Origin: an uncultured Gammaproteobacteria bacterium
GTDB taxonomy: Bacteria > Pseudomonadota > Gammaproteobacteria > CAYTUN01
DNA length: 64,000 bases
Assembly: GCA_964441315.1 (NCBI GenBank)
Contig: CAYTUN010000001.1
Coordinates: 12,807-76,806, forward strand
Reading direction: 5' to 3'
In this document: positions 26,998-59,993 of the stretch, in pieces
How the letters are laid out: each line of letters starts with the position of its first letter
How positions within the stretch are numbered: the first letter of the stretch is position 1
The notes under the pieces: generated by a model
Told to the model about the DNA's origin: nothing
Databases searched by the model: none
What the model saw: the letters and a program-made list of their open reading frames with translations, nothing else
Program-made: the position numbers and the translations under genes

Positions 26998-27030
26998 CAG
27001 GGATCAAGCTTTTGAAAAGTATTTTAGATC

Positions 27031-27212
27031 ACCCCTCATCCGGCCCGTTGGGCCACCTTCTCCCGCAAGGGGAGAAGGACAACTTCGTGAACATCTGCCG
27101 ATACAAATAAACTTAAATGCCATGAAATAAACCTTGTTATGAAAGGCTATTGAAATTTGAAGAGACCCTTCTCCCCTTGCGGGAGAAGGTGCCCGTAAGG
27201 GCGGATGAGGGG
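27031..27212. mobile_element. MITE family A copy 2
   Basis: TIRs acccctcatccggcccgttgggccaccttctcccgcaaggggagaagg / ccttctccccttgcgggagaaggtgcccgtaagggcggatgaggggt; the inverted repeat extends outward (gaaaagtattttagatc / gatctaaaatacttttc). Confidence 0.8.
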
Positions 27213-27346
27213 TGATCTAAAATACTTTTCGAAAAACCTTACCTTGATGTCAAAGCTGCATAATTTGATTAAATTTAAAAAATGTATTTTTATCACATAG
27301 AGCATAAAAAAAATCCTATTGCCAGAGATGGGTAACGTAACCTAAT

Positions 27347-28096: not shown

Positions 28097-28113
28097 TTTA
28101 TTTCTCCTTAGTA

Positions 28114-28275
28114 GGGTCTGCTGACAATTGCCTTTTCTACTGCAAAAAGCAAGGGTTGGCCAAAATCGCATCAAATTTTCGTTACATAGAATAACTATGC
28201 CGCCTCAAATTTGATGCGATTTTGACTCAACCCTTACTTTTTTCGTCACGAAAAGGCAATTGTCATCAGACCCTA
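28114..28275. mobile_element. nested-palindrome MITE family C copy 1 (ggtctgctgacaattgccttttc…gcaaaaagcaagggttg…)
   Basis: About 160-bp element with outer and inner inverted repeats; lies between the photolyase stop and the SDR start and supplies the photolyase stop codon. Confidence 0.75.
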
Positions 28276-29699
28276 ATTTTTTGATAAAGCAAAAGCGCGC
28301 GTTCGCGCGCTAAGGTGTGATCGACGATTGGGGCTGGGTAATTTTCACCCAGTTTTATACCGGCTTTTTTTAATATGTCTTCGGGGGCTTCCCAGGGTTT
28401 ATGGATGTATGGCGCTGGTAGATTTTTTAATTCGGGTAGCCAGTGGCGGATGTATTTTCCTTCTTTGTCGAACTTTTCCGATTGTAATGTCGGATTAAAA
28501 ATTCGGAAATAAGGGGCGGCATCAGCGCCACTGCCAGCGACCCATTGCCAGCTGGCGGCATTATTGGCTAAATCGGCGTCGACTAAAGTGTTCCAGAAAA
28601 AATCCTGGCCGTGTCGCCAATCAATTAATAAATCCTTGATTAAAAAAGAACCGGTAATCATGCGCAGCCGATTATGCATCCAGCCAATTTGCCATAATTG
28701 ACGCATGCCGGCGTCAACGATGGGATAGCCGGTTTCACCCCGCTGCCAACACTTTAATAATTTTTCATGATGCTGCCATTGAAAATTATCAAATTCGGAG
28801 CGGAAATTTTTTTTATCTAATTCAGGGAAATGGTATAAAAGATGATAGGAAAATTCGCGCCAGATAATTTGTGATAAAAATTTATCAAAGCCATTGGCTT
28901 TAATTTTAGTTTGTTGTTTAAAATTTTCGGTGTGATACCAGACTTGTTTCGGGCTGATTTCGCCTAAATGCAAATGTGGTGATAATTGCGAAACGCCATT
29001 TTCGCCAGGGAAATCGCGCATATTGCCATAATCAGCGGCATGGTTTTCTAAAAATGCTTGCAATTTTTTTAGCGCGGCAGTTTCACCAATTTGCCAATAG
29101 CTCTCAAATGCTTTTGCCCAATTGAGTTTAGTCGGCAGTAATTGCCAATCCTGTAATTGCTCGGATGCAATTGAATTAATAGTGTTAATTTTACGTGGCG
29201 CTGGCAATGGATTTAATTCGGGTAAATTGATCAAGCAATTTTTGTAAAAAGGTGTATAAACTTTAAAAGAACCCCCTAAGGAATTTTGCACTTTCCAGGG
29301 TTCAAATAATAAAGCGGTTTGAAAGGACTTAGCTTGGCAACCGGTTTTTTCTAGCTGCTTTTTAATTTCGGTATCACGCGCTATCGCATAGGGTTCATAG
29401 CAACGGTTCCAATAAACCGCATCGGCTTGAGTTTCTTGAAGGATTTTTTCTAATACCGTCAAACAATTTCCCGAGCGCAAAATTAATTTGGCATTTTTTT
29501 TTTCAAGCGCTTCATTTAATGAATTTAAGCTATGATGCAACCACCACTGTTGCGCTTCTCCCATCGGCCAGGGATTATTTTTATCACGTTCATAAATATA
29601 AAGCGGCACAATTTTTTCGGCAGCATCTATTGCCGCTGCTAAAGCAGGATTATCTGCTAAACGCAGATCTTGACGGAACCAAACGATGATTGTCTTCAT
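28266..29699 (-). CDS. phrB: deoxyribodipyrimidine photolyase (cryptochrome/photolyase family)
   Basis: N-terminal photolyase domain (IVWFRQDLRLADNPAL); C-terminal FAD-binding domain with WREF and GWMHNRLRM motifs; start at the internal ATG 29699. Confidence 0.9.
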   Translation of the reverse strand: MKTIIVWFRQDLRLADNPALAAAIDAAEKIVPLYIYERDKNNPWPMGEAQQWWLHHSLNSLNEALEKKNAKLILRSGNCLTVLEKILQETQADAVYWNRCYEPYAIARDTEIKKQLEKTGCQAKSFQTALLFEPWKVQNSLGGSFKVYTPFYKNCLINLPELNPLPAPRKINTINSIASEQLQDWQLLPTKLNWAKAFESYWQIGETAALKKLQAFLENHAADYGNMRDFPGENGVSQLSPHLHLGEISPKQVWYHTENFKQQTKIKANGFDKFLSQIIWREFSYHLLYHFPELDKKNFRSEFDNFQWQHHEKLLKCWQRGETGYPIVDAGMRQLWQIGWMHNRLRMITGSFLIKDLLIDWRHGQDFFWNTLVDADLANNAASWQWVAGSGADAAPYFRIFNPTLQSEKFDKEGKYIRHWLPELKNLPAPYIHKPWEAPEDILKKAGIKLGENYPAPIVDHTLARERALLLYQKIRV

Positions 29700-29924
29700 A
29701 AGCATTAGACTTCCATTTAATTTTTTCAGCGGAAACGCTGAAAACACTATACCAATGATGTTTTAGTGATATGAAAAATTCAAATAGTTGGTAAAAACAA
29801 TATCTTAACAAACGCCAAGCCCTATGTCCCGCCTAGTTCTACAAGCACTCACTTTTGCAGTGAAAACCGCTGAAAATGATTAATTTTCATAATGAGATAT
29901 AATTCAGCAACAGTGCCATTCGTT

Positions 29925-30032
29925 GTCAGGAGATTGCCGCGCTTTGCTCGCAATGACAAATGAGTGGCTTTTCGCTCGTAATGACAAGGCTTCCTTTTTG
30001 TCATTGCGAGCGAAGCGCGGCAATCTCCTGAC
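29925..30032. repeat. palindromic element family B copy 1 (gtcaggagattgccgcg…gtcattgcgagcg…cggcaatctcctgac)
   Basis: About 108-bp imperfect palindrome immediately upstream of blc. Confidence 0.8.
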
Positions 30033-30075
30033 TAAAACTAGCAGCAGATTATTTACAAACTCCAATGGAAAAAAC

Positions 30076-44831: not shown

Positions 44832-45108
44832 GCTCTCTTATAAAGAAAGGCAGCTAATATCATGTCATTTCTTATTTTTATTATCGGCTTGTTAGCTGTT
44901 GAATTTTTATATTTGTACTTTTTAAAAGCATCCGTGCTGAATTTGAAAAATTCCTGGAATTCAAATTTAAGTTAATATATTTAGCGATTTGAACTCTATT
45001 AAGTTCGTTGGTGCTTTTTACGCTATACTGATTCAAAAAAATTTTTTAGCCTAAGTTAAAAATAGCGCTTAGAAAAAAATTACTTTAACTATCGCTCGCG
45101 ATGACAAT

Positions 45109-47087: not shown

Positions 47088-48719
47088 ATGAATAATCAAA
47101 AACTTCTTGTCACCATGGCGTTGCCGTACGCCAACGGGCCCCTGCATCTTGGCCACTTATTAGAAGCAATTCAAACCGACATTTGGGTGCGCTGGCAAAA
47201 ATTGCTGGGAAATAGCTGCTATTTTATTTCAGGCAATGATGCGCATGGTACACCGATTATGCTATCGGCTGAGAAAAAAGGAATTGCCGTTGAACAAATG
47301 CTAGCGGAAATTCATGCAGAACATCAGCGTGATTTTGCCGCGTTTGAAATTGATTTTGACAAATTTTATAGCACGCATACGCCTGAAAATGAAAAATTAT
47401 CGCGCGATATTTTCACGCACATTCAGGCACGCGGCGATATTATTACGCAGGAAATTGAGCAGGCATTTGATGCGGAAAAAAATATTTTCTTGCCGGATCG
47501 TTATGTTAAAGGCACTTGTCCGCGCTGTGGTTCACCGGAGCAGAATGGCGATAGTTGCGAAGTTTGCGGCGCTACTTATACACCGGCTGATTTGCGTGAT
47601 GCTTATTCCATACTTTCCGGTACCAAACCGATTTATAAAAAATCGCTGCATTATTTTTTTCGTTTAGAGAATTATCGGGATTTATTAAGTCATTGGATTG
47701 AAAGCAATAGCTTGCAAACCGAAGTGGCTAATAAATTAAAAGAATGGGTCAATCATGATTTACGTGATTGGGACATTTCGCGTGATGCGCCCTATTTTGG
47801 TTTTTTAATTCCAGGCGAAAAAGATAAATATTTTTATGTCTGGGTTGATGCGCCGATCGGTTACATGGCTGGTTTTAAAAAATTCTGTGATGATTCAAAG
47901 CAGGATATTTTCGATAAGTTCTGGCGAAGCGAGGAAACACAGCTTTATCATTTTATCGGTAAAGATATCGCTTATTTTCATGGTTTATTTTGGCCAGCTT
48001 TTTTAAAAGCGGCGGATTATCGTTTGCCTTCGGCAATTTACGTCCATGGATTTTTGACCGTTAATGGTCAAAAGATGTCTAAATCGCGTGGTACTTTTAT
48101 TACTGCGCAACAATATTTAGCAGATTTTCCCGCTGAATATTTAAGATATTATTTCGCCGCAAAATTAAGCGATACGGTGGAAGATATTGATTTAAATTGG
48201 CAGGATTTTGCGCAAAGAATCAATAGTGATTTAATCGGCAAAGTGGTGAATATTGCGAGCCGCTCGGCTAGTTTTATTCATAATTACTTTTCCGGCAAAT
48301 TAGCGGATCAGCTTGCGGACAAAGATTTATTTATGCAATTTGTTGATGCGGGTGAAGAAATTAGTAACGACTATATCAATCGCCGCTATTCAGCGGCGAT
48401 TAGAAGGATCATGGGGCTTTCGGATATGGCCAATCAGTATATAGCCGAGAAAAAGCCTTGGGAGCTCATCAAACAAGGAAAAGAAACTGAGGTGCATGAA
48501 ATTTGCACAGAAGCACTTAATTTATTTAAATTAATTGTATTTTATTTAAAGCCAGTAATGCCGATTTTAGCTAAAAATGCTGAGGATTTTTTACAGATTG
48601 AGCCAGTGAATTATTTCAATCGTGATCATATGTTGCTTAATCAGGAAATTAAGGCCTATCAGGCCTTGGCAAACCGGATTGATTTAAAACAAATGCCAGT
48701 TTATGCCACGGTTGCGTAA
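47088..48719 (+). CDS. metG: methionine--tRNA ligase (short form without the C-terminal tRNA-binding domain)
   Basis: HIGH (HLGH) and KMSKS motifs; zinc knuckle CPRCGS…CEVCG; 543 aa. Confidence 0.95.
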
Positions 48720-48727
48720 TTATCAAA

Positions 48728-49339
48728 ATGACTATTGATTTAGTTAAAAACATTGATGCGGTATTGCCGCAAACACAATGCGGCTTATGTGGTCATGGCG
48801 GGTGTTTGCCTTATGCTAAAGCTTTAGCAGAAAATCGCGACACGATTGATCATTGTCCGCCGGGTGGCAAAGAGACTTTATTGCAGCTAGCAGAACTAAC
48901 GGGTCAAGCTAGCAGTCCTTATTTGGAAAAAATGACTAAAATTGCCAAACCTAACCAGGTGGTAAAAATCGACGAAGCTATTTGCATCGGCTGCACTAAA
49001 TGCATTCAGGCTTGTCCGGTTGATGCGATTGTCGGCAGTGCTAAACAAATGCACACGGTGATTGCCAGCGAATGCACCGGTTGCGAACTTTGTATTGCGC
49101 CTTGTCCGGTGGATTGTATTGAAATAGTGAGAACTGAGCCGCTGTCATTTGAACAAACGCCGAAAATAATAAGAGATTTACGACGTTCGCGTTACGAGCA
49201 GCATCAATCGCGAAAGGTTGAAAAGAAGGCTAAAGCGATAGAGGCGAATTTATCACGTTATCAACAAAACACAGCGACACGAAAAAGTTTCATTCAGGCG
49301 GCAATAGAGCGGATGAATAAAAAAACTCGCAATAATTAA
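48728..49339 (+). CDS. rnfB: RnfB/RsxB-like polyferredoxin (electron-transport complex subunit B homologue, stand-alone)
   Basis: N-terminal RnfB-type cluster CGLCGHGGC…C plus two 4Fe-4S motifs ([24 protein letters not shown]); directly upstream of nth as in rsx operons. Confidence 0.75.
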
Positions 49340-49390: not shown

Positions 49391-49503
49391 TCAGGAGATT
49401 GCCGCGTCCGCCTTCGGCTCCCTCGCAATGACAAGCGGGTGGCATTGTTGCCCATTTTTTGTCATTGCGAGGGAGCCGAAGGCGAACGTGGCAATCTCCT
49501 GAC
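49391..49503. repeat. palindromic element family B copy 3 (stem carries compensatory substitutions)
   Basis: tcaggagattgccgcgtccgccttcggctccctcgcaatgaca…tgtcattgcgagggagccgaaggcgaacgtggcaatctcctga. Confidence 0.8.
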
Positions 49504-49603: not shown

Positions 49604-50245
49604 ATGAACAAAAAAATCATCAGTGAAATTTTCAAACGCCTCAGTGAAGCAAACCCAGAACCGAAATCGGAATTAATTTATGCCAGCGATTTTGAATTAT
49701 TAATCGCTGTGATTTTATCAGCGCAAGCTACTGACAAGCAGGTCAATATTGTGACGCAAAAATTATTTCCAGTTGCTAACACACCAAAAAAAATTCTGGA
49801 ATTAGGCGAAAAAGGCTTGAAAAATCTGATCCGTTCGATTGGGCTTTATAATAATAAAGCAAAAAATATTATTGCTTGCTGCAAAATGTTGTTAGATAAA
49901 TTTGATGGCAAAGTGCCTGACAATAGCCATGATTTACAGCAATTGCCTGGCGTGGGACGCAAAACGGCTAATGTGGTGATGAATGTTGCTTTTGGCGGAG
50001 AAGTGATCGCAGTCGATACGCATATTTTTCGTTTGGGTAATCGCATTGGCATTGCCAAAGGCAAAAATCCTTTACAAGTTGAACAAAATTTAATGAAAGC
50101 AGTTCCCAAAAAATATTTAAAATATGCGCACCATTGGTTAATTCTACACGGCCGCTATATTTGCAAAGCGCAAACTCCACAATGCATGAAATGTACGATT
50201 AATGATTTGTGCGAGTATCCTTATAAAAAATTGTTGAATAACTAA
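49604..50245 (+). CDS. nth: endonuclease III
   Basis: HhH-GPD domain (LPGVGRKTANVV), catalytic Lys/Asp, C-terminal [4Fe-4S] Cx6Cx2Cx5C. Confidence 0.95.
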   Translation: MNKKIISEIFKRLSEANPEPKSELIYASDFELLIAVILSAQATDKQVNIVTQKLFPVANTPKKILELGEKGLKNLIRSIGLYNNKAKNIIACCKMLLDKFDGKVPDNSHDLQQLPGVGRKTANVVMNVAFGGEVIAVDTHIFRLGNRIGIAKGKNPLQVEQNLMKAVPKKYLKYAHHWLILHGRYICKAQTPQCMKCTINDLCEYPYKKLLNN

Positions 50246-50400
50246 GGTCTGTTTACAATTGCCTTTTCGTGACGAAAAAAGCAAGAATTGAGTCAAAATC
50301 GCATCAATTTGAGGCAGCATAGTCATTCACTGTAACGAAAATTTGATGCGATTTTGGCCAATCCTTGCTTTTTGCAGTAGGAAAGGCAATGAGACCCTGG
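50246..50400. mobile_element. MITE family C copy 3, abutting family A copy 4
   Basis: aggtctgtttacaattgccttttcgtgacgaaaaaagcaagaattgagtcaaaatcgcatcaa…. Confidence 0.75.
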
Positions 50401-50407
50401 TTTTATC

Positions 50408-50591
50408 ACCCCTCATCCGCCCTATCGGGCACCTTCTCCCACAAGGGGAGAAGGCCTTCTCATCAATATTCACTAGCTTTTCATAATTAGGACCATTTCA
50501 TTACATTGAAGTTTATTCTATCGGCAGATGTAGCCGAAAATTGTCCTTCTCCCCTTGTGGGAGAAGGTGCCCGATAGGGCGGATGAGGGGT
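50408..50591. mobile_element. MITE family A copy 4 (interior inverted relative to copies 1-3)
   Basis: Same TIRs; interior …cttttcataattagg…atcggcagatgtagcc. Confidence 0.8.
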
Positions 50592-50752
50592 AATAAAATA
50601 CCCCGCCGCAAGCGGCGTGGTATTTCCTGTTTATAATTTCGCTCGACACGAAGTAAATTCGTTGTCTACGACCTTCGGTGCGAATTGCATTCTCCCCTTT
50701 GGAAACCCCATCGCGCTTTGGAACCTCGCCGCAAGCGGCGGGGTATTAAAAT
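50586..50752. repeat. family D element bounded by GCAA-tetraloop hairpins (ccccgccgcaagcggcg … cgccgcaagcggcggggtattaaaattt)
   Basis: Related copy at 46996-47040 (caccgcaagcagcggggtattaaattt) and a hairpin at 24418-24441. Confidence 0.55.
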
Positions 50753-50826
50753 TTAATAAATAAACCCCATGGCAGGCAACGGGTAATTGCAAGTTTAAAA
50801 ATAATTTTTAAAAACTCATGCCGTAT

Positions 50827-51019
50827 AATCAAACTATACTCAAAACGGATAGGTTTTAGGTGTTATTGCGCCGAGTGATGCGTGAGATTGTCACGTTTTG
50901 ATTGAGCAAAAGTGCAGGAATAGTTGTTCTATTTCGAGCTTTTGCGATTGAAAAACGTGACAAGATCGCGCCTCAATCGGATGCAAGAACACCTAAAACC
51001 TATCCGTTTTGGGTATAAA
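50827..51019. mobile_element. MITE family E (TIR tatactcaaaacggataggttttaggtgtt / aacacctaaaacctatccgttttgggtata)
   Basis: 30-bp TIRs around about 130 bp that contain an inner inverted repeat (cacgtttt…aaaacgtgac); a second right arm is at 1-39 and an arm-like fragment at 16461-16490. Confidence 0.7.
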
Positions 51020-56047: not shown

Positions 56048-56135
56048 AACAGATAGCCCTTGCTTAGGATGAGTGAGGGCTTTTTAGTAACCTTCAAGTA
56101 AATTTGACGACGATATTACAAGCAATCAAATCACT

Positions 56136-56190
56136 AGAGCCTGTTTACAATTGCTTTTTCTACTGCAAAAAGCAATTGTAAACAGGCCCT
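56136..56190 (+). terminator. 55-bp perfect palindrome plus T-run; intrinsic terminator of sodB; minimal member of the 'ggcctgtttacaattgc' repeat family
   Basis: ggcctgtttacaattgctttttctactgcaaaaagcaattgtaaacaggcc followed by ctaatttttt. Confidence 0.6.
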
Positions 56191-56201
56191 AATTTTTTAA
56201 A

Positions 56202-57110: not shown

Positions 57111-57345
57111 GATAAGTCCTTAGATTTAAATTTTTTCAATACTATAAGCTGAAAAGATTAAAATAATGTTAATAATGCAATAGCTTACGCTACAAGATAA
57201 TACTACTAGAGCATGCGATTGAATTGCTTTTTACACTGAAAAAAGCAACTATTAACGCTTGTTTACCAATGCCTTTCGCCACGAAAAAGCATTGGTAAGC
57301 AAGTGCTAAGCAGCATAACCCGTTGATCAAGATAAGGAAAATTGT

Positions 57346-59741: not shown

Positions 59742-59773
59742 TGAATGTGTTAAAGATTATTGCTATTTTGATC

Positions 59774-59955
59774 ACCCCTCATCCGCCCTTACGGGCACCT
59801 TCTCCCACAAGGGGAGAAGGGACTTTTCAAAGTTCAGTAGCTTTTCATAATAAGGCTTATTTTATAGCATTAAACTTTATTCCAGCAGCAGATGTGCCCA
59901 TCAGTTGGCCTTCTCCCCTTGTGGGAGAAGTTGCCCGTAAGGGCGGATGAGGGGT
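59774..59955. mobile_element. MITE family A copy 5
   Basis: Same TIRs; interior similar to copy 4. Confidence 0.8.
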
Positions 59956-59993
59956 AGTCAATAGAATTTTCCTAAAACCACACATTTGCTAAG

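Follow-up and report, generated by a model that had tools for sequence, protein, structure and literature searches.

The described system that comes closest to the repeats analyzed here is that of the Ssn proteins, which are single-domain GIY-YIG nucleases such as the 94-aa SsnA of N. meningitidis (Chenal et al., Nat Commun 2025; PMC11893778). Ssn binds a hairpin repeat solely as single-stranded DNA, and neither as duplex nor as RNA, and cuts one strand a few bases upstream of the repeat (PMC11893778). This repeat is termed NTS in Neisseria (CGTCATTCCCGCGMAVGCGGGAATCYRG), where its 5' part reads CGTCATTCCC... and where it represents the longer form of about half of the dRS3 copies, and SRM more generally (PMC11893778). 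Mutagenesis with SsnA indicated that binding depends above all on the C right behind the palindrome, and cleavage on the three bases ahead of it, while the loop of the repeat is dispensable and can be extended by engineering (PMC11893778). The NTS-ssnA-NTS architecture is IS-like, for which the same paper draws an analogy to REP/BIME elements and RAYT; in addition, an Ssn homologue is encoded in 81% of the genomes with >200 SRM, and SRM can be searched for with a degenerate pattern (HGTCWYN(0-2)YYVSBRHN(0-5)WNVSBRGN(0-2)RNCYNB) built from 29 genomes (PMC11893778).

We analyzed a stretch of 64,000 nt (hereafter, the window), for which a preliminary description had reported three palindromes with common termini and a common inner core, a shorter relative, and a fragment. 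All of these were recovered (Table 1), the three palindromes each within one base of the earlier coordinates. They are 91–112 nt long and share termini and core far above chance: the terminus TCAGGAGATTGCCGCG (up to 3 mismatches) had six matches in the window, all of them element ends, versus 0.37 expected, and the core GTCATTGCGAG (up to 1 mismatch) had nine versus 0.74 expected. All pairs in the window are tail-to-tail and symmetric, with a loop of 23–39 nt, and their six arms lie within 20 kb. The copies have related loops, each ending in a T-run on the plus strand. Folded as single-stranded DNA, the whole elements form one long hairpin (−46.9, −46.2, and −58.2 kcal/mol, respectively; z −12 to −15), whereas isolated modules or arms fold at −6.5 to −8.9 kcal/mol only.

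Table 1 Palindromic elements, their arms, and related repeat copies in the window
Feature	Position	Strand	Description
Copy 1	29926–30031		Tail-to-tail pair of modules
Copy 1, left arm	29926–29957	−	Single module, GTCATTGCGAG-CAAAG-CGCG-GCAATCTCCTGA
Copy 1, loop	29975–29985	−	Partial third module core, GTCATTACGAG
Copy 1, right arm	30000–30031	+	Module, GTCATTGCGAG-CGAAG-CGCG-GCAATCTCCTGA
Short relative	37205–37230	.	Two fused cores, 9–11 bp hairpin GTCATTGCGAGCGTTAGCGCAATGAC, without the GCAATC end
Copy 2	40525–40615		Tail-to-tail pair of modules
Copy 2, left arm	40525–40556	−	CGCAG triloop variant of the module
Copy 2, right arm	40584–40615	+	Module with CGCAG; closing tetramer mutated to CGCC
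Solo core	45095–45105	−	Degenerate remnant GTCATCGCGAG, one mismatch (the fragment reported earlier)
Copy 3	49391–49502		Tail-to-tail pair of modules
Copy 3, left arm	49391–49432	−	Module with a GCC-GAA-GGC hairpin inserted at the loop position
Copy 3, loop	49437–49459	+	Small GC hairpin followed by a T-run
Copy 3, right arm	49461–49502	+	Same inserted hairpin as the left arm; two transitions apart

The real unit of these elements is each arm, a module of 32–42 nt, rather than the long hairpin. Its consensus is T-GTC-ATTGC-GAG-[variable hairpin]-CGNR-GCAAT-C, in which ATTGC can pair with GCAAT, and an example from the window reads T-GTC-ATTGC-GAG-CGAAG-CGCG-GCAAT-C. The inserts at the variable position range from the mini-hairpin C-GNA-G to longer stems (e.g., GCCC-GAA-GGGC, CCAGTG-CGCA-CACTGG, and GGGGAC-GTA-GTCCCC). 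The module was found in at least 230 loci from many phyla. There it stands alone, is paired with an inverted partner in either arrangement, or forms arrays, with up to 29 modules in 8 kb. When one genome per species was scanned with the arm pattern GTCATTGCGAG-N6-25-GCAATCTCCTGA, at least 116 genome loci were returned; the matches listed included Chloroflexota, Desulfobacterota, Bacillota, Bacteroidota, Rickettsia, Neisseriaceae, Gemmatimonadota, Nitrospirota, and others, and among them the module was identical over 23 bases across phyla. Also among the matches listed, an inverted partner upstream was missing in nearly all genome loci, and an inverted partner 0–71 nt downstream (i.e., a head-to-head pair) was present for 73 of the 120 arms. 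The tail-to-tail arrangement, as in the window, was found with a second scan pattern in at least 120 metagenome loci.

Dense arrays were observed on several metagenomic contigs (L129, 1420–6702; L188, 4140–4462 and 12072–12722; L219, 822–4686). A few insert variants recur many times within such arrays, which points to proliferating sub-families inside one genome. Many tail-to-tail pairs (e.g., those on L126, L132, L144, L150, L166, L187, and L205) have a common loop, in which a degenerate third core precedes a T-run (AAGGGATGCGTCATTGCCAGCCTTTTTTTA or the complement), even though the flanking arms vary; the loops of copies 1 and 3 (29960–29999 and 49433–49460) resemble this shared loop.

The module resembles NTS/SRM repeats in most of the features that describe the latter. 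NTS/SRM are imperfect palindromes of 20–50 nt that start with A-T/Y directly behind (not G)-GTC; the module is likewise an oriented, imperfect palindrome (ATT...AAT) able to form a hairpin, with a variable loop, GTC directly before it, and an almost invariant cytosine directly behind it. Among the metagenome modules, for which the search pattern had not imposed these bases, C directly followed GCAAT in 430 of 436 modules, and the base directly before GTC was T in 89% and T or C in 464 of 479; in the window, TGTCATT and GCAAT-C are each present in all six arms. As with NTS/SRM, the copies are intergenic and clustered, the repeat is spread across phyla (Rickettsia and Neisseriaceae included), and it flanks both sides of a ~95-aa single-domain GIY-YIG gene, although the last feature was found in related loci and is absent from the window. 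Several differences were also apparent: the stem of the module is ATTGC...GCAAT with a GA/GA internal loop, versus ATTCCCGC...GCGGGAAT in NTS; unlike in NTS/SRM, an additional covarying hairpin is frequent at the loop position; and, again unlike NTS/SRM, the copies in the window form tail-to-tail pairs that are symmetric and have a loop of the length given above. These natural covarying loop hairpins fit the engineered finding that the loop tolerates extension. The published SRM pattern had no match in the window, since the modules fail at its YY position, which the NTS consensus passes. This pattern is a search tool and not a functional definition, and because it misses a widespread class of SRM (GTCATTGCGAG...GCAATC), current counts of SRM-bearing genomes may be underestimates.

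We then asked which genes accompany the module. When the ORFs of all loci that lie no more than 400 nt from a module were clustered, one recurrent family of ~95 aa emerged, which Pfam assigned to GIY-YIG (PF01541; E 1e-12 to 1e-16). Earlier clustering within 2.5 kb of the genome loci only had found no dominant ORF family, so that the association emerged only when all loci were combined with the 400-nt limit. Across the 1.52 Mb of module-selected loci, a profile search identified 25 Ssn-like ORFs (E < 1e-10). In a set of 15 Ssn-type ORFs (the outlier L089 excluded), nine showed a module-gene-module geometry, in which a same-strand module precedes the start codon by 16–64 nt and an inverted module follows the stop by 1–52 nt, i.e., the arrangement (GTCATTGCGAG..GCAATC)-gene-(GATTGC..CTCGCAATGAC). 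The partner proteins are likened to Ssn by their size, their single GIY-YIG domain, and their repeat-flanked context; this partner family is very large and comprises 5883 clusters (E ≤ 1e-10), almost all of ~97 aa. A PDB sequence search with an Ssn-like protein returned no match, NCBIfam holds no specific model for the GIY-YIG partner of the module, searches for COG2827, YhbQ, and UPF0213 retrieved nothing relevant, and literature searches with sequence strings (GTCATTGCGAG, CTCGCAATGAC, CGAAGCAATCTC, VIARSEATKQS, and others) retrieved unrelated primer matches only.

By analogy with this described system, the palindromes in the window are probably tail-to-tail inverted pairs of an NTS/SRM-class module, and would represent recognition sites of a putative Ssn nuclease. 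The elements are best filed under this known system, in preference to a new structured RNA; what had appeared to be a covarying structured RNA is re-filed as a repeat that a newly described family of enzymes recognizes in DNA. The preliminary description had set the palindromes apart from the end of a decaying transposon, a contrast that is misplaced since modules flank the GIY-YIG gene in an IS-like manner in related loci.

Other families of small palindromes share some of these properties. E. coli BIMEs combine Y and Z REPs. REP/BIME/REPIN elements and their RAYT partners (E. coli and Pseudomonas) resemble the module in being small imperfect palindromes recognized as single-stranded hairpins, in forming inverted pairs and short/long mosaics, and in having a repeat-flanked partner gene. 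The window elements could be read as elements of this type, mobilized by a RAYT (a tyrosine HUH transposase of the IS200/IS605 type, unrelated to GIY-YIG), as they are short, imperfect, and intergenic palindromes that occur in clusters and in inverted pairs of both arrangements, and pairs elsewhere typically join a short and a long module type, like Y and Z REPs. We regard this as very improbable, because the partner of REP/BIME elements is a Y1 HUH transposase and that of the module is a GIY-YIG nuclease, whose ORF is the only recurrent neighbor family with a fixed geometry; no transposase-like cluster recurred near modules, either among the ORFs within 2.5 kb of the genome loci or among those within 400 nt of all loci. 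Moreover, the arms lack a GTAG or CGTC head and all start with TGTC-ATTGC, and REP families are normally species-specific, as opposed to the cross-phylum identity of the module.

Similarly, the window elements resemble MITEs (e.g., Correia elements and Rickettsia palindromic elements) as ~100-nt, palindromic, intergenic, multi-copy elements with conserved termini. They differ from MITEs in that their arms are independent modules, which are also found singly and in the opposite arrangement, and in that the cores lie on the outside of the gene-carrying form and its TCAGGAG ends on the inside, opposite to the order in the window elements. An assignment to MITEs was rejected: inverted termini are present, but the flanks of copies 1–3 (GTTG/CTAA, TTAA/CTTT, and GTAA/CATC, respectively) contain no target-site duplication.

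Having defined the module, we explored where covariation resides. Among 309 distinct inserts (9 nt or more), 39% form a Watson-Crick stem that is anchored at the ends and spans 4 bp or more, compared with 3.5% after shuffling, and 84 distinct insert stems were counted. In a gap-free alignment of 52 distinct 32-nt modules, evaluated against 500 shuffles, double-sided changes were found at four of the five pairs of the inner helix. The alignment contained 46 compensatory cells versus 10.9 ± 4.0 in shuffles, with none of the 500 shuffles reaching 46, and its covariation score was 0.208 versus 0.065 in shuffles (again reached by none of the 500) and at most 0.098 when the partners were slid. Among the module loci listed, symmetric pairs accounted for 3 of 76 tail-to-tail and 6 of 73 head-to-head pairs, and the arms mostly carry different inserts, in 92–96% of pairs elsewhere. 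Since covariation lies inside the module and the arms of pairs are unlike, the conserved structure of the family is the module hairpin and not the long stem. The earlier suggestion that a hairpin is under constraint, and that the palindromes are not random, therefore holds, but for the small hairpin inside each arm; it is not supported for the long stem between arms.

The preliminary description had also reported that the inner stems of the three copies differ by compensatory, base-pair-preserving substitutions. Such differences are real, yet the picture was idealized. The difference between copies 1 and 2 (CGAAG in the former, CGCAG in the latter) is the N of the C-GNA-G triloop, a loop position that tolerates any base across the family (A 43, C 21, T 19, and G 11) and at which two arms would agree at random in ~31% of cases (0.31 per element). 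Copy 3 differs by the GCC-GAA-GGC hairpin inserted at the loop position, common to both arms. The supposed compensation thus comprises just one loop base and one insertion, to be set against four uncompensated differences between arms, namely T.G in copy 1, C.C in copy 2 (where the right-arm closing tetramer was mutated to CGCC), and G.T and C.A in copy 3. The apparent compensation probably arose because each pair carries one module variant copied into its two arms, as inverted duplication or arm-to-arm conversion would produce. That the same variant occupies both arms of all three elements is unusual and shows a common origin or a conversion of the arms; it is no evidence for selection at the level of base pairs. 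More generally, matching changes in the two arms of a palindrome carry little weight as evidence of compensation when both derive from one module.

These observations bear on an alternative in which the long arm-to-arm hairpin is itself selected, either as RNA (a terminator, mRNA stabilizer, or processing site) or as cruciform DNA, so that the arm variants would be truly compensatory. Several features would be accommodated by it: all three window elements are symmetric, as opposed to the few symmetric pairs elsewhere, their stems are very stable (−46 to −58 kcal/mol), their related loops all end in a plus-strand T-run, a terminator-like hairpin lies inside the loop of copy 3 (the only such site within any of the three elements), and copies 2 and 3 are directly behind plus-strand genes. 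We nevertheless consider it distinctly unlikely, given that what covaries is one substitution at a freely variable loop position plus one insertion, that two of the four uncompensated differences are C.C and C.A, and that arm-to-arm pairing is unconserved elsewhere in the family. A role as terminator, as proposed earlier, is not borne out, as there is no T-run behind the outer stems, no terminator site was called at copies 1 and 2, and copy 1 is behind no plus-strand gene. The proposed structured-RNA role fared no better, as no Rfam family reached its gathering threshold in the window or in any of five module-rich loci.

Below threshold, the best hit of a relaxed scan was Rfam mir-4484, against which copy 1 over its whole length (29926–30031, both strands) scored 41 bits (threshold 90), and we read this as a generic match to a long hairpin and not as homology. 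A hammerhead or other small ribozyme, considered for the GAG...CGAA flanks, was likewise rejected, as the would-be core bases vary (CGAA, CGTG, or CGCG) and the Rfam ribozyme models were unmatched.

Returning to the reading as NTS/SRM-class recognition sites, we propose that whenever the DNA becomes single-stranded (i.e., when it is replicated, repaired, or taken up in transformation), each arm would offer one oriented site, one per strand. A putative Ssn encoded elsewhere in the genome would bind an arm and cut a few bases upstream, that is, inside the loop of the pair. The repeats may have spread as ends or derivatives of an IS-like module-ssn-module unit. Several aspects count against this explanation. 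The window has no Ssn-like ORF, and its modules are missed by the published SRM pattern. As Ssn does not bind duplex, the long hairpin would bury the sites in a duplex; in such a model the long stem would compete with the module sites and perhaps mask them. Moreover, the symmetry of all three window pairs, versus the prevailing unlike arms elsewhere, needs a special explanation. The symmetric pairs represent a local peculiarity of this genome. It seems improbable, though conceivable, that symmetric palindromes are made by a dedicated process in this lineage and that the long hairpin then does something beyond the single module. Possible candidates for such a process are fold-back priming of Ssn-nicked single strands and hairpin-templated conversion of arms, and the long hairpin might then hide Ssn sites in duplex as self-protection or, as a cruciform, mark or regulate neighbors such as blc.

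The window itself contains no Ssn-like ORF (profile search, best E 0.19), which would also agree with the elements being inert relics, i.e., decaying non-autonomous copies of a past module-ssn-module invasion that are functionless, have lost their enzyme, and were kept palindromic only by mutational mechanisms (template switching or mismatch correction within hairpins). Signs of decay are indeed present in the degenerate copies at 37205 and 45095, in the CGCC tetramer of the copy 2 right arm, which is absent among 676 family modules, and in the CAAAG of the copy 1 left arm, a rare variant with four instances in the family. Even so, five of the six arms keep every position found important by mutagenesis (GTC, ATT...AAT, and C), and six arms are retained within 20 kb, which together make the relic interpretation rather unlikely.

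Each of the three copies sits between genes: copy 1 separates a divergent photolyase gene from a blc-like lipoprotein gene, copy 2 is flanked by convergent genes, and copy 3 by an rnfB-like gene and nth. Copy 1 had previously been placed inside the 5' leader of blc, with an ORF reading through it. This ORF (29923–30630, with a TTG start) is mechanical, and the true start of the lipoprotein is the ATG at 30076, giving MTFFKHLFLIAATYLLTAC. Translated through copy 1, the ORF yields the peptides LAMT / FARNDK / SLRAKRGNLL, an artefact, and similar repeat-derived peptides head spurious ORFs at other module loci. MetG is 100% identical to a protein from an NCBI contig of 88,861 bp and, at the next best hit, 59% identical to a protein of Candidatus Berkiella aquae, which marks the source as a Legionellales-like gammaproteobacterium; exact look-ups with the blc and nth products retrieved nothing. 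Near copy 3, a 2.3-kb contig of the same organism from a read assembly (L119, SRR10912416; corresponding to 47088–49339 of the window) stops exactly at the stop codon of the rnfB-like gene, just before the copy; the repeats evidently break short-read assemblies.

Other repeats were also observed in the window. A second palindromic family of ~200 nt occurs at 16495–16815, 27024–27222, 33183–33393, 50400–50600, and 59766–59964, with GC-rich arms of 54–59 nt (CCCCTCATCCGCCCTATCGGGCACCTTCTCCCACAAGGGGAGAAGG); its first copy contains five tandem 19-nt units (TAAGAACATCTGCCAATAA) at 16558–16691. A third repeat family of ~168 nt (TAGGGCCTGTTTACAATTGC...GCAAAAAGCAA) occurs at 28112–28279, 32994–33161, 50237–50410, 56131–56195, and 57222–57256, and two of its copies, which are inverted, share 90% identity, and lie 4.7 kb apart, bracket the photolyase-blc region with copy 1. 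Finally, a 47-nt inverted repeat (91% complementary) was found at positions 1–47 and 50825–50871, 50.8 kb apart.
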